Positions 56,459 to 64,000 of a stretch of DNA of 64,000 bases are shown in pieces. Numbering within the stretch: position 1 is the first letter of the stretch; every line of letters begins with the position of its first letter. The stretch is taken from the NCBI GenBank assembly GCA_026991135.1, contig JALXCD010000067.1, forward strand, positions 532-64,531, in the 5' to 3' direction. Made by a program: the position numbers and the translations under genes. Below the pieces are notes generated by a model. It was not told the DNA's origin, did no database searches, and worked only from the letters and a program-made list of their open reading frames with translations. Source of the stretch: Deltaproteobacteria bacterium. GTDB taxonomy: Bacteria; Desulfobacterota; Dissulfuribacteria; Dissulfuribacterales; QOAL01.

Positions 56459-57112
56459 TTAAAGATGGGTTTCAGCTTCTTTTGCCATTTGTTTTAAAAC
56501 TTGGATTACTTCCGGCTTTTCTTTCAATTCAGGATAGTCTTCTAATGTTGTTGCTGCCTTGAGATAAAGATCAAAATCCTGACCAAGAAATTTTTTTCTA
56601 AAACCCCTTCTTGCCATATCAAAATCGTAATGGAATTTTCCCCAGAGAAAGGCAAGATCATACGGGTCTTTCCAAAGAACTCGTCGTCCGCAAGCATATA
56701 TCTTGTTTAAAAAAAGATCATAATCGCTGAAGGTGACAATACCGTAAACATCTTCCGTGTCGTTTATTGGTTTGAAAGGAAACGATATAAATGACACCTT
56801 TATTTCCTGGATGAATACATCGAGATTGTCGGCTCCAGGTTGTTGGATGAAACCTTCGATATCAAAATTCTTTTGTATCTTCCCAAGAATTGAGGTAAAT
56901 GTCCTGTCTTCGTTAAAAAAGAAATCTAAATCTAGGCTTTCCCTATGGTTGTGGCGAAACATGATGGCAGTTCCGCTGCCAAGGACAAAGGAAGGAAAAA
57001 TTCTTTGTATTTCATGTGCCAGGTGAAACAGTTTTTTCTGCCGGGTTTTTGGACACAAGGGATTTTCTCCATTCCTTAACTGCTGCCCTACAACCTCGAA
57101 AGACATCGTCAT
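56459..57112 (-). CDS. AbiEii/AbiGii-type nucleotidyltransferase (type IV TA toxin family)
   Basis: 'LGSGTAIMFRHNHRESLDLDFFF' matches the GGTAL..HR.S.D.DFF NTase signature. 217 aa. Confidence 0.6.
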   Translation of the reverse strand: MTMSFEVVGQQLRNGENPLCPKTRQKKLFHLAHEIQRIFPSFVLGSGTAIMFRHNHRESLDLDFFFNEDRTFTSILGKIQKNFDIEGFIQQPGADNLDVFIQEIKVSFISFPFKPINDTEDVYGIVTFSDYDLFLNKIYACGRRVLWKDPYDLAFLWGKFHYDFDMARRGFRKKFLGQDFDLYLKAATTLEDYPELKEKPEVIQVLKQMAKEAETHL

Positions 57113-57329
57113 AGGTATTAATCACATGGCTGCAGACATCAGGCCAGAGTTCAAATGCAAGTCGAAGAGCCTTGTAGTTTGTTGAGTCACACATAATTCT
57201 ATGAACTAAAACTTCCAGCATGATCTTATTGTCAACGGCATCCCATGCCCATTTTTTTAATTCAGCCGGGACAGAAACTATCTGGGTGAATTTCGGCCTG
57301 ATTCGTTTAACGGTGCCTTTGACGTGCAT
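57012..57329 (-). CDS. hypothetical protein upstream of and overlapping the NTase (possible cognate antitoxin)
   Basis: 105-aa ORF whose last 101 nt overlap the NTase ORF in another frame. No SD seen. No family recognised. Confidence 0.35.
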   Translation of the reverse strand: MHVKGTVKRIRPKFTQIVSVPAELKKWAWDAVDNKIMLEVLVHRIMCDSTNYKALRLAFELWPDVCSHVINTYDDVFRGCRAAVKEWRKSLVSKNPAEKTVSPGT

Positions 57330-57728: not shown

Positions 57729-58001
57729 TCAGTATCTGGATAATTTTTTGTAAATATCCCGCCTGTGGCCAACCTTTACAATCCAGACAACAAGCTTCCT
57801 ATCCTTTATTGAGTATATTATTCGATAATTGCCTTGACGGATTCTGTATCTTTCTTGCCCTGAGAGCTTTTCACATCCAGGTGGCCGAGGATCATTTGCA
57901 AGGGATTTGATCCGCTTGATGATCTTCTTTAAATCCTTATCAGGGATCTTGTCCAGGTCCTTAAGAACGGATTTCTTTAAAAATATTTTATAGGCGGCCA
58001 T
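57729..58001 (-). CDS. RelE/ParE family type II toxin
   Basis: 'YRIRQGNYRIIYSIKDRKLVVWIVKVGHRRDIY' is the typical RelE/ParE core. 90 aa. Confidence 0.85.
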   Translation of the reverse strand: MAAYKIFLKKSVLKDLDKIPDKDLKKIIKRIKSLANDPRPPGCEKLSGQERYRIRQGNYRIIYSIKDRKLVVWIVKVGHRRDIYKKLSRY

Positions 58002-58221
58002 GCCGTTTAAGCTCTTTTAACACATCCTCAAAGGCAATTAGGGGTTCGTCTGCCCTTTCTTCAAATGCAGCCAAGTCTTCTGCATCTTCTGCAAGGCTTA
58101 GACGTATGGCCTCGTTAATAAGCTCTGACATGGACCGTGATGTGGCAGCTGCCTTTATTTTTAAGGCCCTGTGAATATCAGGATCCAGATATACTGTGGC
58201 CCTTTTGCTAAGCTGTGCCAT
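57988..58221 (-). CDS. ribbon-helix-helix antitoxin
   Basis: 'KRATVYLDPDIHRALKIKAAATSRSMSELINEAIRLSL' is an RHH fold pattern. It overlaps the toxin start by 14 nt. Strong SD AGGAGGTG. Confidence 0.8.
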   Translation of the reverse strand: MAQLSKRATVYLDPDIHRALKIKAAATSRSMSELINEAIRLSLAEDAEDLAAFEERADEPLIAFEDVLKELKRHGRL

Positions 58222-58307
58222 ATTGTCACCTCCTGGTATTAAAGCAGTATAACATCAAAATGTTTTTGTGACTATAGGTTGGTTAGATGAGGATGTATTT
58301 TTTTCTT

Positions 58308-58323
58308 TGCCAGCATTTACCAG
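58308..58323. promoter_or_regulatory. candidate operator upstream of the parA remnant (TGCCAGCATTTACCAG)
   Basis: Nearly the same two-hexamer unit as the first two iterons of the downstream array (TGCCAGCATATTGCCAG at 58996-59012). Confidence 0.45.
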
Positions 58324-58346
58324 AAAAGCACGAGAAGGGGCACGAA

Positions 58347-58739
58347 ATGCTAGTAATTGCCATAGCCAATCAGAAGGGAGGAGTCGGAAAGACCGCAACC
58401 ACCTTTAATCTTGCTCATGCCATTTCAAGGGCTGGGAAAAAGGTCCTCATGGTTGACCTTGATCCCCAGGGGTCGCTTACTGACTATGCGGGCTTTATTC
58501 CTTCAGAGCAGGATGACACCATCTATGAGGTGCTTCACGGCCAAAAATCCATTCTCGACGTCATACTTAAAGAAGAAGGGGAGGGCGCAGGCGACATTAA
58601 GGTCTTTTCTCCCATTATCTACACAGTAAGAATACAGGAATCCCCTGTGGCAAAGCAGGCTATATTTGATTACGCCCCAGAGACCGAGGCAGGAAAAAGA
58701 TTCTTGGAGCTTGGAAGGGAGGTAATAGATGAGTGCTAA
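58347..58739 (+). pseudogene. parA: ParA/Soj-type partition ATPase with a large in-frame internal deletion (probably non-functional)
   Basis: Deviant Walker A 'NQKGGVGKTATT' and A' 'VLMVDLDPQGS' are present. The ORF is only about 130 aa. It jumps to a ParA C-terminal-like end ('ESPVAKQAIFDYAPETEAGKRFLELGREV') with no Walker B region. Confidence 0.6.
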
Positions 58740-58995
58740 AAGGGTTTCCATGAAGGGGGCAAAGGGTCTTTTAGGCGGAATAGCCCCTAGGGACAAAAAG
58801 ACATCATCTGAAGAGGCAGTTAAAACTGCTCAAACTGTGACAAAGACCAAAAAGAAAGACATAAAATGGCGAAAGGCCACAATAAGGTTTGAAGAGGGTT
58901 TCTTTCTAAAAATTAAGGATAAGCTAGCAAGGGAAGGCCGCACCCTTCAGGGATACATTGAGTACTTGATAAGACGGGATATGGAAAAGGACTGA
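58729..58995 (+). CDS. ribbon-helix-helix protein, ParG-like putative centromere-binding protein
   Basis: A Lys-rich flexible N-tail is followed by 'RKATIRFEEGFFLKIKDKLAREGRTLQGYIEYLIRRDM' (beta-alpha-alpha pattern). The start overlaps the parA stop. Confidence 0.6.
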   Translation: MSAKRVSMKGAKGLLGGIAPRDKKTSSEEAVKTAQTVTKTKKKDIKWRKATIRFEEGFFLKIKDKLAREGRTLQGYIEYLIRRDMEKD

Positions 58996-59086
58996 TGCCA
59001 GCATATTGCCAGTAAAAGCTGGTAAATACTGGCAATATACTGGCAATTACCAGCAATATTACAGTAAATGCTGGCATTCGCTGGCA
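58996..59086. repeat. phased iteron array (putative parC/parS-like centromere): 9 hexamers CTGGCA/TGCCAG and variants at 10-11 bp spacing
   Basis: Hexamer starts: 58996 and 59007 (TGCCAG), 59019 (CTGGTA), 59029 and 59040 (CTGGCA), 59050 (CCAGCA), 59061 (ACAGTA), 59071 and 59081 (CTGGCA). The array fills the whole convergent intergenic gap. Confidence 0.7.
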
Positions 59087-59095
59087 CATAAAGAA

Positions 59096-60571
59096 TCAAA
59101 GGCCGGCGACTTTACACAGAAATTCATAAAGCCTTAAAAGGGCCAGGGTATCCAGGCGGCAGTATTCTAGAAGTGCATTCCTTATTTTTTCCCTCTCCTC
59201 CCTGTCTTTTATCAGGTGAAGTGTGGCAAAGGTGTCCATGGCCATTCCCCCATTTCTGATTTCAAGTCCATTGTAATCAAGGGTTTTGTCATCTGGGAAA
59301 ATGGCAGGCAGGACAGACTTTAGCGAAAGGCTGCCGTTAAATTCCGGGTGGTAGTAGCCCCCGTTCCTAAATGGCTCCATAAGGTCCTCAAATCTTTCTA
59401 GAAGGGAGAGAAGCTCATTTTTGCGAAGAGGGTCATAATCTGCAAGCCCTTTTATTATCCCTTCTTCAAAGCCCTTGTTAAAGGCCACAATGCTCCCTTG
59501 GGGCCTTATGTCCTTTAGCATATGTGAAATGACATGATTTCTAGGGTCCTCGTTTTCATCTGCCAGAAACTCCCTGTGTTCAAGGTTTCCGTCTTCGTAA
59601 AGTATGTGGAGGGAGTATTGAAAGGGTATATGCATGTAGGGCCTTTGTCCGTCAAACCTTGGGATTGGCTCATTGAAGGTTTCAAAGTCAAAAAAGTGTA
59701 TGGGATAGGAAAGGCGAGAAAGAAACTGCCTTATCTTTTTCCTGTCAACATGGACGGAACCCGTCTTTTCGGTCTCTATCTGAAGTGCCTGTATGGCATT
59801 GGGCCTAAAGTCTTCCGGGATGTCTGAGATTTTAAGAATGCCTTCCTGGTAAAGCTCAAATTTCTTAGCCTGAGTTAGGCGGTAAAGATTAAAAATAGAG
59901 CGCTCGGGCACATTGCGCCAGCACCATGACATATAGTCGCAATCATAAAAATTAAAACAGTGGGGACCAATATCCACTTGGGGCATATCGCCTTTAAGCA
60001 TCGTAGAAAATTTTTGTCTGTAATCCTCAATTTCTCCCTGCTTGGACACCACCTCATGGGTTACGTCCTTAATGGCAAAAAGCCCCTTGATGTCTAGCTC
60101 TCCCTTGCGGACGTAGCTGTTGTCTATATGAATGATGAAGGCCCTTTTTATCCTAAGGCCAAAGTTTGAAAAAGCCCTATATTGAAAGGCAACATCAAGA
60201 ATGTGATAGTCCTTTACGGACGTAGAGGCCTTTACCTCATATATTTCCCAGCCATCCCCGTCTCTTTTGAGGATGTCTGCCATTGCAAAGTCTCCCCTTG
60301 CGCTTACCGTGGCTTCATAAATCGTATCCACTCCGGCATCAAGCCACTTCCTGGTCTGGCTGATCATGCCTTTAAAGTTTTCAGGGTCAAAGGCCACCTC
60401 TTTTCCGCCAGGAAAAAGCCTTTTAGCCAGATCTCCCACCATGCGTCCAGATTCAAATCTGGCCTCTTGCCCCTGGTCCGGCTCATCCCTTGGAATGTCG
60501 CTATTTTTGTAGAGCCAAAGGGATTTTGCGCACTTGACTCCCCTTACAAAAAGGGACTTAGAAAGATTCAT
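59096..60571 (-). CDS. DUF2779 protein: N-terminal Cas4/RecB-like PD-(D/E)xK nuclease with Cys cluster, plus a C-terminal DEDD-like exonuclease
   Basis: 'MNLSKSLFVRGVKCAKSLW' is a DUF2779-type N-terminus. Also 'DGWEIYEVKAS', 'HCFNFYDCDYMSWC', 'FFDFETF' and 'YCRLDTLAL'. Confidence 0.7.
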   Translation of the reverse strand: MNLSKSLFVRGVKCAKSLWLYKNSDIPRDEPDQGQEARFESGRMVGDLAKRLFPGGKEVAFDPENFKGMISQTRKWLDAGVDTIYEATVSARGDFAMADILKRDGDGWEIYEVKASTSVKDYHILDVAFQYRAFSNFGLRIKRAFIIHIDNSYVRKGELDIKGLFAIKDVTHEVVSKQGEIEDYRQKFSTMLKGDMPQVDIGPHCFNFYDCDYMSWCWRNVPERSIFNLYRLTQAKKFELYQEGILKISDIPEDFRPNAIQALQIETEKTGSVHVDRKKIRQFLSRLSYPIHFFDFETFNEPIPRFDGQRPYMHIPFQYSLHILYEDGNLEHREFLADENEDPRNHVISHMLKDIRPQGSIVAFNKGFEEGIIKGLADYDPLRKNELLSLLERFEDLMEPFRNGGYYHPEFNGSLSLKSVLPAIFPDDKTLDYNGLEIRNGGMAMDTFATLHLIKDREEREKIRNALLEYCRLDTLALLRLYEFLCKVAGL

Positions 60572-61566
60572 TTTTCATATGCCTCCAGCATTTTTTCCAA
60601 GGCATGCCTAATTTCTTCTCTTAGGCCTTCTGGCTCTAGGAGCTTTGCCTCTGGCCCATAGGTCATCACCCACCTTTTTATGTCGTACCAGCCAGAGGTG
60701 ACCATCTCGAGTATGATGGAGCCGTCGGGCTTTTCAGTAATCTTCTGCTTTCTTGCCCATTTGCGCTCCCTTATGTAGCGGGCCTGATCCCTTGAAAACC
60801 AGATCTTTACGGTGAACTCCTCGTCGTAGATGATGCCAAAGGTGGTATTAAGGAACTTTTCTGGGTCAAAGTCCTCGGGATACTCAAAGGTCTCGTCTGT
60901 TATCTTTAGATCCTTTATTCGCTCAACGGCCAGAATCCGTATCTCATCAAATCGACAGATATTAACAAAGCAATATAGCCCACCGTTGTTTTCAAAAAAA
61001 TAAAGGGGAGCGATCCTGAAATTCTTGATCTTGTCGTCTGAAAAGGCATGGTAGGTTACTAGACAGACCTTGCCCTTGAGTATGGAGCTACAAAGGTCCT
61101 CTATCACCTGCTGCTTGTCAGAATAGTCCTTGTTGAACTTAGAAGGCGCAACAAAGAGAGAGCGCACCTTTTCAAGCTGGGGAAAAAGCCCGGAAGGGAC
61201 AAACATCTCTATCTTTTTGAAGGCGGAATCTATCCTCTTTTCTATGTCTGTTCCTCTAAAGGCCGCCTCTCCCTTTTTAAGGAGATAAAGAGAGATGATC
61301 TCGGAAAGTGAAAAACGCACATCCGGTATGGTAAGATTTGGAAGTCTTTTTTGAAACTCATCAATAAAAAACCACCTCTTTTTTCTTCCAAGGGGCTCCT
61401 TTTCATTTGTCAGTGGAAAGCCCAGCTCCTCTATGGTGTTTAGAAGCCGATAGACAGACCTTTTGTCTATCTCCAGGCGTTCTGAAAGCTCGTTGACCGT
61501 TGCCCCGGAGGGCCTACTCAAAAGATCTATGGCCCTTAGAAGTTTTATAAGGTTTGCGCCCCTCAT
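60568..61566 (-). CDS. WYL-domain transcriptional regulator (wHTH-WYL-WCX architecture)
   Basis: wHTH 'LLRAIDLLSRPSGATVNELSERLEIDKRSVYRLLNTIEELGFPL'. WYL-like core 'VCLVTYHAFSDDKIKNFRIAPLYFFENNGGLYCFV'. The ORF is open to a GTG at 61623; I prefer the ATG at 61566. The stop overlaps the DUF2779 ATG (ATGA). Confidence 0.8.
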   Translation of the reverse strand: MRGANLIKLLRAIDLLSRPSGATVNELSERLEIDKRSVYRLLNTIEELGFPLTNEKEPLGRKKRWFFIDEFQKRLPNLTIPDVRFSLSEIISLYLLKKGEAAFRGTDIEKRIDSAFKKIEMFVPSGLFPQLEKVRSLFVAPSKFNKDYSDKQQVIEDLCSSILKGKVCLVTYHAFSDDKIKNFRIAPLYFFENNGGLYCFVNICRFDEIRILAVERIKDLKITDETFEYPEDFDPEKFLNTTFGIIYDEEFTVKIWFSRDQARYIRERKWARKQKITEKPDGSIILEMVTSGWYDIKRWVMTYGPEAKLLEPEGLREEIRHALEKMLEAYEK

Positions 61567-61604
61567 TTTCCCTTTCTTAAAATTTTCTGAAATTTTTTTT
61601 AAAA

Positions 61605-61625
61605 GTGTGACCAGTTTCGTCACAC
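61605..61625. promoter_or_regulatory. perfect inverted repeat GTGTGAC-N7-GTCACAC in the divergent control region (candidate WYL operator)
   Basis: The 7-bp arms are exact reverse complements. Located between the WYL start (61566) and the ClpP-like start (61695). Confidence 0.5.
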
Positions 61626-61694
61626 ATTGCTGTCATGATAGTTCCCGAAGGCAACTTCACCTCAAACTCCAAACTTTATCATTACGGAGGGAAA

Positions 61695-62264
61695 ATGGAA
61701 AAAGAAAATGTGAGGCAGTCATCGGAAACCCTGGGAGACCAGGGGATAATTTTTATTTCAGGGACCATAAACGAAGGCATATCAGAAGATGTATGCAGGC
61801 AGATCCTGGAGATAAACATCAAGGAGAAGGTGGATCACATCCAGATGATTATAAATTCGTCAGGCGGAGCAATGAACGCAGGCTTTGCAATCATAGACAT
61901 GATGGAGTGGTCATCCATTCCCGTATATACCATTGGCATAGGCATAATCGCTTCCATGGGGCTCATGATTTTTATGGCGGGCGAGAAGGGAAGAAGAGTC
62001 ATAACCCCCAGAACATCCATACTTTCCCATAGGTTTTCCTGGGTCAACCTAGGTCACCATAGCCAGCTTGTGGCTGCAAGGAAGGAAGAGGACCTTGCTC
62101 ACGAAAGGATAGTTGCCCACTACCAGCGCTATACCAGGATTAAGGATCGTGGCGAGCTTGAAAGCACGCTCCTTAGGGACGTGGATACATGGCTGTCTCC
62201 AGGAGAGGCGCTGAAATACGGCATTGCAGATATCATAGAGCCTGGAAGAAGGCAGGCCCTTTAA
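61695..62264 (+). CDS. ClpP-fold (S14-like) serine protease paralogue lacking the N-terminal axial-loop region
   Basis: It aligns by eye to E. coli ClpP from 'RVIFLTG': 'GIIFISG', 'INSSGGAMNAG', 'IASMG' (Ser), 'ILSHRF' (His), 'RDVDTWLSPGEALKYGIAD' (Asp). ATG at 61695 follows the SD GGAGGG; the track ORF starts at 61635. Confidence 0.75.
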   Translation: MEKENVRQSSETLGDQGIIFISGTINEGISEDVCRQILEINIKEKVDHIQMIINSSGGAMNAGFAIIDMMEWSSIPVYTIGIGIIASMGLMIFMAGEKGRRVITPRTSILSHRFSWVNLGHHSQLVAARKEEDLAHERIVAHYQRYTRIKDRGELESTLLRDVDTWLSPGEALKYGIADIIEPGRRQAL

Positions 62265-62289
62265 ACAGTCAAAAAAAGGAGGAAAGCAC

Positions 62290-64000
62290 ATGACAGAAAC
62301 AAATTGCATGGCAGCGGGCTTTGCAGCGCCAACATTAAAAATATCTCCGCTTGGGTCTAGATGGCACGTTGGAAAGGGAGAAACGGACAGGGAGTATTTT
62401 AGAACCAATCTTGAGCATCTGGAAATGATAGAGACAATCATGAAGCTTAGGCTCTGTGAAGCCTGTTTGAGGATAAAGGGACTTGAAAGATTAGAAAAGA
62501 CCCCCTTTGCCAGGCTTGCCCGCAAATATCCTGACTTAAAAAGCGTTAGAGAAGGAATACAATTTCTTGAAGGCAAGAGAAAATTAATGGAAAAGAGCTC
62601 TCTTAAAGAGGGAATAGAGCTTAAACTTTTGCGCCTTGCCGAGACATACGGGCTTAACGAATTTGACCAGCTTATTGTTCAGCTTCTTCTTGTATATCAA
62701 ACCAGTGTGGAATTTAAGGCACTTGTCGAGGCTTGCAATGATGAAACCTGGGGCTCTGTTTTTCCTATGCCCTCTACAGGCGCCATACTTTCTATTTTGT
62801 GTCCGGATTACAAAAGCCAGTTAAACCATCTTCCACATTTCAGCATGGAAGGCACCCTCATTGGGGAATCCATTATCAAGGCGGAAGGCTTTATCAGGAA
62901 AAAGCCTGTAATGGATGTCAACATGAGTCTTGACGGGCAGATTGTGCGTTTCCTCATGGGCGATGAAAGGCGCTACAGGTCCGATTTTTCATGTATAGAA
63001 GTTACACGTCCTTCAGCCGGGCTTGAGCAAGTGATAATAGACGAGAAACTAAAGAAAGACATAGTGGAATATGCGGAAAATTTTGTGCGCTCAAAAAACT
63101 GCAGCCCATGCAATGACAATTTCTTTGGATATGGTACAGGGTTAACAATGCTTTTTCATGGACCTTCCGGGACAGGGAAGACCATGATGGCTCATGCCCT
63201 TGCTGATCATCTGGGGAAAAAGCTTCTGAGTCCCATTTCTGATGATATTGATGAGCTCTTTGATATTTCGGATATTTTGCCTCGCCTATTCAGGGAGGCA
63301 AGGCTTAGCGATGGCATAGTGTTTCTGGATGAGTGCGACGACATCATAAGAGCTGATTCGGCTGCAAACCGCGCCTTTCTTATAGAAATTGAGAAAGCTG
63401 GATGCATAACGATTCTTGCCACGAACAAGGTTTCTGACTTGGATCCAGCCCTTGAGAGGCGTATCAACCTAAGGGTCCGATTTCGTTTGCCAGATAGGGA
63501 TGAAAGGGCAAGAATCTGGCAGACTCTTTTGCCGCCGAATGTCAAAATGGCAGATGATGTAACCTTTGAGGAGCTTGCCGAGAGATTCGTTTTCACAGGA
63601 GGATTGATCAAAAATGCCATAGTGATGGCGTTAAATAGCGCTGAAAAAAAGGGAACAAACATCATCCTTTCTAGAAAGGCCCTATTTAAGGCCGCTTCTT
63701 ACCAGGCTCAGACAATGTTTGATACGTCCAGTCCGGAGCATTCCTATAAGCCTGACATTTCCATCCAGTCCCTTCCCATAAGGGCCGCCGAAAAGGCCTT
63801 TCTCGCCCGCCTTCCGGAAGCACAGAGAAGGAGCCTTGAAAAAAGGGAATGCGGCATTCTTTGCTACCTTGGATGCAGGGATCAGGAAACGGCGGTTTCA
63901 TGTGTGGAGGCTGTTGCTGCAGAATGTGATGCAGGCGTAAGCATGTTCAAGCTTTCGGAAATACTTGCTCCACCCTCCAGGGAGCAAATGGTGCTTGACC
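62290..64000 (+). CDS. AAA+ ATPase (classical clade, Afp15-like N-domain architecture), 3'-partial: runs off the window end
   Basis: Not in the ORF track. My hand translation from the ATG at 62290 (SD AGGAGG 7 nt upstream) gives about 570 codons with no stop. Walker A 'GPSGTGKT' (63160-63183), Walker B 'VFLDECD' (63319-63339), then 'ILATNKVSDLDPALERR', 'RIWQTLLP' and 'TGGLIKNA'. Confidence 0.8.
   Translation, partial: MTETNCMAAGFAAPTLKISPLGSRWHVGKGETDREYFRTNLEHLEMIETIMKLRLCEACLRIKGLERLEKTPFARLARKYPDLKSVREGIQFLEGKRKLMEKSSLKEGIELKLLRLAETYGLNEFDQLIVQLLLVYQTSVEFKALVEACNDETWGSVFPMPSTGAILSILCPDYKSQLNHLPHFSMEGTLIGESIIKAEGFIRKKPVMDVNMSLDGQIVRFLMGDERRYRSDFSCIEVTRPSAGLEQVIIDEKLKKDIVEYAENFVRSKNCSPCNDNFFGYGTGLTMLFHGPSGTGKTMMAHALADHLGKKLLSPISDDIDELFDISDILPRLFREARLSDGIVFLDECDDIIRADSAANRAFLIEIEKAGCITILATNKVSDLDPALERRINLRVRFRLPDRDERARIWQTLLPPNVKMADDVTFEELAERFVFTGGLIKNAIVMALNSAEKKGTNIILSRKALFKAASYQAQTMFDTSSPEHSYKPDISIQSLPIRAAEKAFLARLPEAQRRSLEKRECGILCYLGCRDQETAVSCVEAVAAECDAGVSMFKLSEILAPPSREQMVLD

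Follow-up and report, generated by a model that had tools for sequence, protein, structure and literature searches.

What does a ClpP-fold protease do when it is encoded together with a AAA ATPase, a WYL regulator and a DUF2779 nuclease? Proteases of this fold are otherwise known as housekeeping degradation chambers and phage prohead proteases, and the question is raised by a locus at the end of a 64,000-nucleotide stretch of DNA ("the window") from a Deltaproteobacteria bacterium of the Desulfobacterota (contig JALXCD010000067.1 of assembly GCA_026991135.1), where two pairs of genes diverge from a short control region. We are highly confident that these four genes, which together span 5.6 kb, form a real co-functioning module, and a role in conflict or defence is probable. 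The explanation that we favour, with moderate confidence, is a discrete, horizontally transferred four-gene conflict module that most likely serves anti-phage or anti-mobile-element defence. A sequence-only reading had put the locus forward as a candidate undescribed conflict or defence system, and its anatomy, its recurrence and the lack of a match to any named system support that proposal in part, but its core had to be re-scoped and a role in DNA-damage repair is a candidate as well. The parts of the module are:

59096-60571, minus strand: DUF2779 dual nuclease, 491 amino acids (aa; list of open reading frames (ORFs) and Pfam)
60568-61566, minus strand: wHTH-WYL-WCX regulator, 332 aa from the ATG at 61566 (the mechanical ORF runs to a GTG at 61623)
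61567-61694: divergent control region of 128 bp, with a candidate WYL operator inside
61695-62264, plus strand: ClpP-fold serine protease paralogue, 189 aa from the ATG at 61695 (the mechanical ORF starts at 61635)
62290-64000, plus strand: WHD-AAA ATPase, first 570 of 740 aa; the gene ends at window-equivalent position 64512

The start of the regulator at 61566 is backed by homologues of 332 aa (in the related loci L003, L005 and L090) and that of the protease at 61695, the MEKEN position, by the homologue alignment A1, which was also used for comparing the catalytic triad. With these starts the intergenic region is 128 bp long, as had been stated earlier, and the two divergent operons around it are reproduced. 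The finer details of the layout hold as well: on the minus strand the regulator gene ends in gaa aaa TGA and the nuclease gene begins with the overlapping ATG A (60571-60568), the ATPase gene starts 25 nt after the stop of the protease gene, and Pfam profile searches agree with all four domain calls (WYL, DUF2779, CLP_protease and AAA).

A conserved core of three genes

A second assembly of the same DNA, a contig of 9159 bp (L001), was found by searching for the identical DUF2779 protein; it matches the final 5000 bases of the window at 100% identity and supplies the sequence beyond position 64000. Relatives were collected in a species-level scan of 185,579 genomes, one per species, which returned 74 loci, and linkage was counted on six-frame ORFs with phmmer and jackhmmer. 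The WHD-AAA gene directly follows the gene of the ClpP-like protein in 64 of the 68 loci that have at least 1 kb of downstream sequence. Long flanks, of no less than 5 kb upstream and 7 kb downstream, are available for 23 loci; in these the AAA gene is always present, the WYL gene occurs 20 times and DUF2779 12 times. It follows from these counts that the conserved core consists of the WYL regulator, the ClpP-like protease and the AAA ATPase, and DUF2779 is the commonest of many swappable genes and a fixed fourth member in the lineage of the window. The expectation that the four genes co-occur in other genomes was thus correct, except that DUF2779 takes part in only about half of the loci. A chance adjacency of the four genes is ruled out, as the set recurs in dozens of unrelated genomes.

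Among contigs with Pfam annotation, the ClpP-like, WHD-AAA, DUF2779 and WYL genes are found together in Geobacter sp. OR-1, Syntrophomonas, Geomobilimonas luticola and several metagenomes. Gene orders vary among them, and the commonest has the WYL gene diverging from a row of ClpP, AAA and DUF2779 genes. The closest relatives (ClpP 84% and AAA 71% identical) have the layout of the window, with the DUF2779 and WYL genes on one side and the ClpP and AAA genes on the other, and contain none of the Nmad genes that are described below. Most of the 74 loci belong to Desulfobacterota, and the others are from Nitrospiraceae, Planctomycetota, Terriglobia, Gemmatimonadaceae, Latescibacterota, Rokuibacteriota, Dependentiae, Bacteroidia and metagenome-assembled genomes (MAGs) of Bacillales; one comes from a MAG labelled as an archaeon. 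At least four assemblies hold two loci each (L016/L027, L026/L054, L024/L043 and L075/L076, from Geobacter sp. OR-1 and three MAGs), and a tyrosine recombinase (integrase) accompanies 5 of the 23 long loci.

In Geomobilimonas luticola (L009/L017, 17893-19308, minus strand) the module has a gene for a BrxL-like Lon/ATPase at a distance of about 1 kb on one side and an integrase gene on the other.

A ClpP paralogue without axial loops

The protease belongs to the Pfam family CLP_protease (1.5e-34; 119.9 bits against a cut-off of 20.2). Its residues S87, H112 and D164 are invariant among homologues and line up with the catalytic residues in the known ClpP structures. The alignment to those structures starts at residues 11-16 of the query, and since this corresponds only to about residues 22-26 of the solved chains, the segment that forms the axial loops is missing; all homologues begin at the same short N-terminus. 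Both halves of the earlier description, a ClpP paralogue with Ser, His and Asp kept and with the N-terminal axial-loop residues gone, are therefore supported by the conserved triad and the structural alignment. The subfamily is large, with 540 homologues at E <= 1e-10, and the top 120 of these, with identities of 60-84%, have lengths of 186-209 aa, mostly 186-192. All NCBIfam models for ClpP stay far under their cut-offs (the best is PRK12553 with 108.8 against 228, and TIGR00493 clpP reaches 76.3 against 308.6), and judged by these cut-offs the protein does not appear to be an orthologue of housekeeping ClpP. No PADLOC model matched it, and neither did a subtilase model.

An ATPase with one active ring

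The ATPase, which is 740 aa long in full (from L001, protein P0121), matches in Pfam the families PF22977 "WHD variant" (2.4e-20) and AAA (8e-16). It consists of a helical PF22977 N-domain (residues 33-229), an active AAA domain D1 (280-480), a degenerate D2 (about 520-730) and a C-terminal LFG tail. Its AlphaFold2 model has a predicted local distance difference test score (pLDDT) of 81.7, and the top Foldseek matches of this model are the tandem-AAA proteins p97, Cdc48, Rix7 and NVL, over about 560-600 columns and with E-values down to 2e-18, so that the model displays a predicted tandem D1-D2 AAA fold. In terms of sequence the protein is not placed in the Cdc48/p97 family, as the NCBIfam CDC48 model yields 38.6 against a cut-off of 802.

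The Walker A motif GPSGTGKT (291-298), the Walker B residues D347-E348 and the arginine fingers R390-R391 of D1 are invariant; D2 is devoid of a P-loop. The region of pore loop 1 in D1 (residues 316-325, window 63235-63264) is variable and acidic in all of 30 homologues, without the canonical K-[YFW]-x-G pore loop. This means that the sole hydrolysing ring lacks the usual substrate-gripping aromatic residue, and together with the dead D2 it leaves the simple picture of an unfoldase that feeds ClpP without support. At the extreme C-terminus, the motif [PK]-x-L-F-G is invariant in the 30 homologues of alignment A2 and is followed by 0-25 variable residues. The tail (residues 729-740, L001 3309-3344) is disordered in the model, with a pLDDT below 50, and its motif may be a short linear one by which the ATPase docks to the ClpP-like protein. 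Mean pairwise identities are 0.36 for the N-domain, 0.53 for D1 and 0.33 for D2, and 0.70 for the protease; we count the much faster divergence of the N-domain and D2, relative to D1 or the protease, as a signature of the conflict type.

The best match among 72,556 plasmids is a AAA ATPase that is encoded beside a tape-measure gene in the injection system of Serratia entomophila, that is, Afp15 (BLASTP, 34% identity over the AAA domain, E = 5e-30). Serratia Afp15 also carries the PF22977 WHD and the PF00004 AAA domain. The likeness to Afp15 that had been noted from the sequence thus extends to the domain make-up and stops there: the order of the active domains, the pore loop and the gene setting differ.

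The DUF2779 nuclease and the swappable cargo

In Pfam, the nuclease matches DUF2779 (PF11074, 1.5e-42), RNase_H_2 (2e-6) and, weakly, Cas4, for which PADLOC also gives a match (2.5e-5). Its N-terminal part is a Cas4/RecB-like PD-(D/E)xK domain with a four-cysteine cluster, and its C-terminal part is an RNase H-like exonuclease domain of the DEDDy type. Fourteen homologues conserve C14, D99, E112-x-K114, Q130 and C205/C211/C217 in the first half, and D295-x-E297, E369 and Y470-x3-D474 in the second, which substantiates the dual-nuclease assignment of the sequence-only reading. A related DUF2779 protein, MMSYN1_0389, has likewise been read as a Cas4-like protein plus exonuclease in a 2026 paper (PMC13621843). 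Against the NCBIfam model of the UU173 family the protein of the window scores 77.6 bits, with a cut-off of 225.

The genes that follow the ATPase gene in the same direction are hypervariable, and no cluster of them is common to more than 6 loci. For a census of this cargo, Pfam was run on cluster representatives and on 101 co-directional genes located 3' of the ATPase; 82 families were matched, 25 of which were listed. Among the 101 cargo genes, DUF2779 was matched 6 times, ERCC4 5 times, REase-ARP and HD 4 times each, and PDDEXK_4, MBL, SIR2 and DUF6915 twice each. The cluster representatives add PDDEXK_1, weak UDG-like matches, a DnaA-like ATPase and a DUF4062-STAND-TPR protein, and one cargo gene matched the DprA family domain (DNA_processg_A). 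The cargo is dominated by nucleases and SIR2. In the same set, PADLOC matched models of PDC-S26, PDC-S01, ShosA, AbiEi/AbiEii and PsyrA.

In loci L005 to L008, which represent one metagenomic lineage (for example L005, 14857-16966), the module is followed by genes for DUF6915, RtcB and an RF-1 family (PrfH-like) protein, a set of the RNA-repair and ribosome-rescue type; DUF6915 is also found as cargo in L044 and L058.

The regulator and its control region

Pfam assigns to the regulator the domains WCX (1.6e-20), WYL (1.4e-6) and HTH_IclR/HTH_11. All characterised wHTH-WYL-WCX regulators, CapW, DriD, SiwR and PafBC among them, bind single-stranded DNA (ssDNA) (PMC11662680, PMC10693628). Among solved chains, the nearest to the regulator in a PDB search are DriD (8tp8 and 7u02; E about 2e-9) and PafC, with the likeness confined to the WCX part, and neither BrxR nor CapW was among the proteins returned. 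The RWHVR motif, as defined for CapW/BrxR (PMC11662680), was not found in the protein, where a comparison by eye with the WYL consensus reads GLYCF at the expected position. The regulator had been likened to the BrxR/CapW class that stands beside defence operons. This comparison holds for the architecture and for the divergent placement, which 14 of the 20 WYL-containing long loci show, but the sequence is nearer to DriD and PafC, and the protein does not appear to be of the BrxR/CapW subtype.

The control region contains a perfect palindrome, TGTGAC-N7-GTCACA, at 61606-61624, which occurs once in the window against 0.04 expected occurrences and recurs in L044 and L058, again upstream of the gene for the ClpP-like protein; it is a candidate WYL operator. 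In six other loci (L045, L046, L049, L055, L059 and L063), the region between the WYL and the ClpP-like gene carries another, A/T-rich motif, approximately ATTTTTTTCAAAATGnCCAAAAAT. This motif is unlike the palindrome shared by the window, L044 and L058, which suggests operator sub-types that track the lineages of the regulators. A promoter scan detected no sigma-70 consensus in the control region or in the gap between the ATPase and Nmad2 genes, and a terminator scan yielded a single match, inside a gene (61729-61744) and at chance level, and none in that gap.

Boundaries of the module

The features that surround the module are the following:

56459-57112: AbiEii-like nucleotidyltransferase (homologue of an abortive-infection toxin)
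57012-57329: gene of 105 aa upstream of the AbiEii-like gene, no annotation
57729-58221: ParE/RHH pair
58287-58739: ParA fragment of 150 aa, of which Pfam aligns the N-terminal portion only
58729-58995: ORF of 88 aa, no family
58992-59077: double-hairpin repeat cluster with the units CCAGCATATTGCCAG / CTGGCAATATGCTGG (repeat search, RNA folding)
L001 1492-2948, minus strand in L001 (window-equivalent 64873-66329): overlapping Nmad2-Nmad3 pair (Pfam)
L001 3-475, plus strand in L001: SRAP gene (abasic-site crosslinking, YedK-like) in two overlapping frames of 77 and 90 aa

The double hairpins are located past the DUF2779 stop and again past the AAA stop (L001 3102-3176, window-equivalent 64645-64719). 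The two clusters share one 29-nt copy that is 97% identical between the sites, contain several inverted pairs, and fold much more stably than shuffled sequence (z = -5.8 and -7.6). Elsewhere in the 64-kb window the motif was not found, save for four matches with three mismatches at chance level; it has no match in Rfam and was not found in the closest relative L090. The paired hairpins bracket the four genes as one unit and leave Nmad2-Nmad3 outside, and they may represent operon-end hairpins or terminators, cassette boundaries or protein-binding sites.

Beyond the ATPase gene, L001 continues with a gap of 360 bp, Nmad2 (1.4e-64), Nmad3 (1.5e-85), a PIN/Phd pair and the SRAP gene, whose split is probably due to a frameshift that makes it a pseudogene, or to an assembly error. 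Nmad2 and Nmad3 occur in 0 of the 74 related loci, and elsewhere they form an autonomous overlapping pair without ClpP or AAA genes, for example in a Nitrospira MAG and beside a transposase (L084-L086). For these reasons and in view of the hairpin-containing gap, they were rejected as members of the operon. DefensePredictor includes an NMAD domain among the defence domains that it predicts and that await validation (PMC13092281). Nmad proteins are not covered by any PADLOC model, and a viral scan with the single sequence of Nmad3 gave no match. Nmad3 alone was observed in Halomonas.

On the other side, the AbiEii-like gene, the ParE/RHH pair and the truncated ParA agree with the earlier view of an accessory island with toxin-antitoxin (TA) and partition remnants. 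No tRNA was found near the island.

The proposed conflict module and its rivals

The features that we count as signatures of conflict are, in addition to the divergence of the ATPase domains, the patchy spread, the paired loci, the integrases, the flanking TA and AbiEii genes and the hypervariable cargo with its PADLOC matches to ShosA, AbiE, PDC-S26 and PDC-S01. Since the protease, D1 of the ATPase and both nuclease domains keep their catalytic residues, they are predicted to be catalytically competent. On this basis we sketch how a defence module could operate, although the specific mechanism is tentative. By analogy with its characterised relatives, the wHTH-WYL-WCX protein would bind the palindrome and control both divergent operons, with ssDNA from infection or DNA damage as the signal. 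The ClpP-fold protease and the Afp15-related tandem AAA ATPase, both part of the conserved core, would act as a pair, probably in a complex that is held together via the LFG tail, and the fast-evolving N-domain and D2 of the ATPase would supply the recognition of a target or partner. A single active ring without an aromatic pore loop makes the ATPase more likely a nucleotide-driven switch or regulator than a threading unfoldase, and it might regulate the protease as the IetA ATPase does the IetS protease. The DUF2779 protein, with its Cas4-like and DEDD nuclease domains, would be the DNA-degrading effector, in whose place relatives swap in ERCC4, PD-(D/E)xK, REase, HD, MBL or SIR2 proteins. 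Proteolysis would then license or restrain the nuclease, through its activation or through the loss of an inhibitor or a target protein, and we hypothesize that the DUF2779 protein itself could be cleaved by the ClpP-like protease. The most far-reaching form of this proposal is a novel ATP-dependent protease complex that docks by the LFG tail and forms the core of a new WYL/ssDNA-induced immune family licensing a downstream nuclease or NADase, which is possible but in our view doubtful.

Several observations weigh against the defence explanation. A defence function is read from the context. In sequence, the regulator is nearer to DriD and PafC, which are activators in the DNA-damage response, than to BrxR and CapW, which are repressors of defence systems, and cargo such as ERCC4, UDG-like, Cas4-like exonuclease, DprA-like and MBL proteins is equally typical of DNA repair. 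About half of the loci do without DUF2779, which means that the core need not be functionally coupled to it, and with the pore loop absent and D2 dead it is hard to see how the ATPase would serve a ClpP-type chamber. The AlphaFold2 monomer of the ClpP-like protein, built from an alignment of 26 sequences, is poor (pLDDT 53.7) and was not used for a fold search. Finally, the module was not found in the viral contigs of IMG/VR or in GenBank phages, where the best viral match to the ClpP-like subfamily is 47% identical and neither the subfamily nor the pair is present on any viral contig or phage record.

Some of these points lead to the alternative that survives best, even if we consider it unlikely: a DNA-damage-inducible repair module, in which the WYL protein would sense ssDNA, the ATPase and protease would strip proteins from DNA, as at DNA-protein crosslinks or blocked DNA ends, and nucleases such as DUF2779, ERCC4, MBL and UDG-like proteins would process the DNA. 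With DriD and PafC as the nearest solved relatives of the regulator, it is relevant that PafBC is encoded at the proteasome locus and that cells require degradation by the proteasome in order to recover from DNA damage (PMC10693628). Furthermore, the cargo is rich in repair-type enzymes, and the disrupted SRAP gene is located nearby. The ATPase model folds like Cdc48/p97, and this is the type of ATPase that eukaryotic DNA-protein crosslink repair uses. A repair module has nevertheless to be reconciled with a very patchy distribution of 74 loci in 185,579 species genomes, with two loci per assembly in several genomes, with a hypervariable cargo that includes SIR2 and DUF4062-STAND-TPR proteins, with neighbours of the TA or abortive-infection type, and with integrases near some loci. 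These properties are more typical of conflict systems than of repair.

An addiction pair similar to IetAS, in which the protease would be the toxin and the ATPase the antidote, stabilising integrative elements with the nucleases as unrelated island cargo, seems to us quite improbable. IetAS was indeed first found as a TA pair of a serine protease and a AAA ATPase for plasmid stability (PMC13069673), D1 is most similar to the IetA models, the missing pore loop fits a regulatory ATPase, and integrases and other TA pairs lie nearby. However, the protease here has the ClpP fold instead of that of a subtilase, and only 5 of the 23 long loci contain an integrase. The linkage of WYL (20 of 23 loci), the tightly spaced co-directional cargo and the four-gene layout kept in the closest relatives argue that the nucleases are part of the unit. 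Addiction and defence are, moreover, not mutually exclusive.

We give virtually no credence to a phage-derived structure, in which the ATPase would load a contractile injection system in the manner of Afp15 or the ClpP-like protein would serve as a prohead protease, although the best plasmid match Afp15 has the PF22977 WHD and AAA domains and the ClpP-like protein matches the head maturation protease family phrog_94 of PHROG with 93 bits, because L001 refutes both for the locus of the window, the ATPase gene being followed by hairpins, Nmad2, Nmad3, PIN/Phd and the SRAP fragment and by no sheath, tube, baseplate, portal or capsid genes, because such genes are also missing from the Pfam-annotated relatives and from the 25 listed of the 82 cargo families, because no viral contig has the pair, and because the domain order is unlike that of Afp15, which keeps the pore loop that is lost here.

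If the favoured conflict module is indeed immune, the defence circuits built of ATPase, protease and nuclease would gain a third protease fold next to subtilase and trypsin/caspase, pairs of the IetAS type would have a tractable model, and DUF2779 dual nucleases, which are widespread, would be given a first biological context. A module for DNA damage would instead represent the bacterial analogue of DNA repair assisted by Cdc48 and a protease, placed under the control of a WYL protein.

Comparison with known systems

As the sequence-only reading had supposed, no named system matches the locus. PADLOC finds for the ATPase only matches at the level of the AAA domain, to IetA, TRIP13 and mad8, and no NCBIfam family passes its cut-off. 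A description of the gene set of ClpP-like, AAA, WYL and DUF2779 proteins was not found in the literature, nor was a report of a ClpP-fold protease that is dedicated to a conflict system or paired with an Afp15-like AAA protein, which is absence of evidence in a limited full-text search.

IetAS (Gao_Iet) is a TA and defence pair of a AAA ATPase and a serine protease that was first seen as a plasmid-stability TA on pTiC58 (PMC13069673). It shares with the module the two-gene pairing and the accessory and mobile context, and in both PADLOC and NCBIfam no models match D1 better than those of IetA. Still, the NCBIfam model IteA_antiphage reaches 64.7 bits against a cut-off of 510 and the PADLOC hidden Markov model of IetA gives 66.8 bits on the AAA domain only, which indicates that the ATPase is not a member of the IetA (IteA) family, and its partner does not appear to be a subtilisin-like IetS. 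The gene order is reversed, the subtilisin-like fold is replaced by the ClpP fold, and the module has a 740-aa ATPase with a WHD and a degenerate D2, besides the WYL gene and the nuclease cargo.

Afp15 and Pvc15 resemble the ATPase in the make-up of PF22977 WHD and AAA, in having two AAA domains and in size. In Afp15 the active AAA domain is the C-terminal one and keeps KYIGE, whereas the ATPase has ISDDIDELF at the aligned position and its active AAA domain right after the WHD. Afp15 is encoded beside tape-measure and DUF4255 genes, and the ATPase beside a protease, with no injection-system genes.

The regulator has the three-domain architecture, the divergent placement and the intergenic palindrome in common with the defence repressors BrxR and CapW and with the DNA-damage activators DriD, PafBC and SiwR, and it differs from all of them by the overlap with a nuclease gene, which predicts translational coupling. 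The nuclease belongs to the same Pfam family and has the same two-domain organisation as the MMSYN1_0389/UU173 family, but MMSYN1_0389 keeps two of the cysteines (PMC13621843) where the protein of the window keeps all four, and unlike solo Cas4-like proteins it is part of a regulated four-gene module.

Proteases that activate pro-nucleases have been described for Hachiman (HamMAB), AVAST and canu by Tuck et al. (PMC12799240). The pairing of protease and nuclease in immune loci and the swappable nucleases are paralleled here, and MBL-type cargo is present in two relatives. The published systems rely on trypsin-like or caspase proteases with an MBL nuclease, and the present module on a ClpP-fold protease.

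The comparison with housekeeping ClpP returns to the initial question. The two proteases belong to one fold family, their Ser-His-Asp triads align and their handles are equally long, and both have an adjacent gene for a AAA+ partner. Housekeeping ClpP, which works with ClpX, ClpA or ClpC, possesses axial loops that the ClpP-like protein does not have, and its partner is a Clp ATPase of the HCLR clade, whereas the ATPase of the module is a Cdc48-like AAA protein of the classical clade. Clp ATPases carry an internal IGF loop, and the ATPase of the module has its LFG motif in a C-terminal tail.

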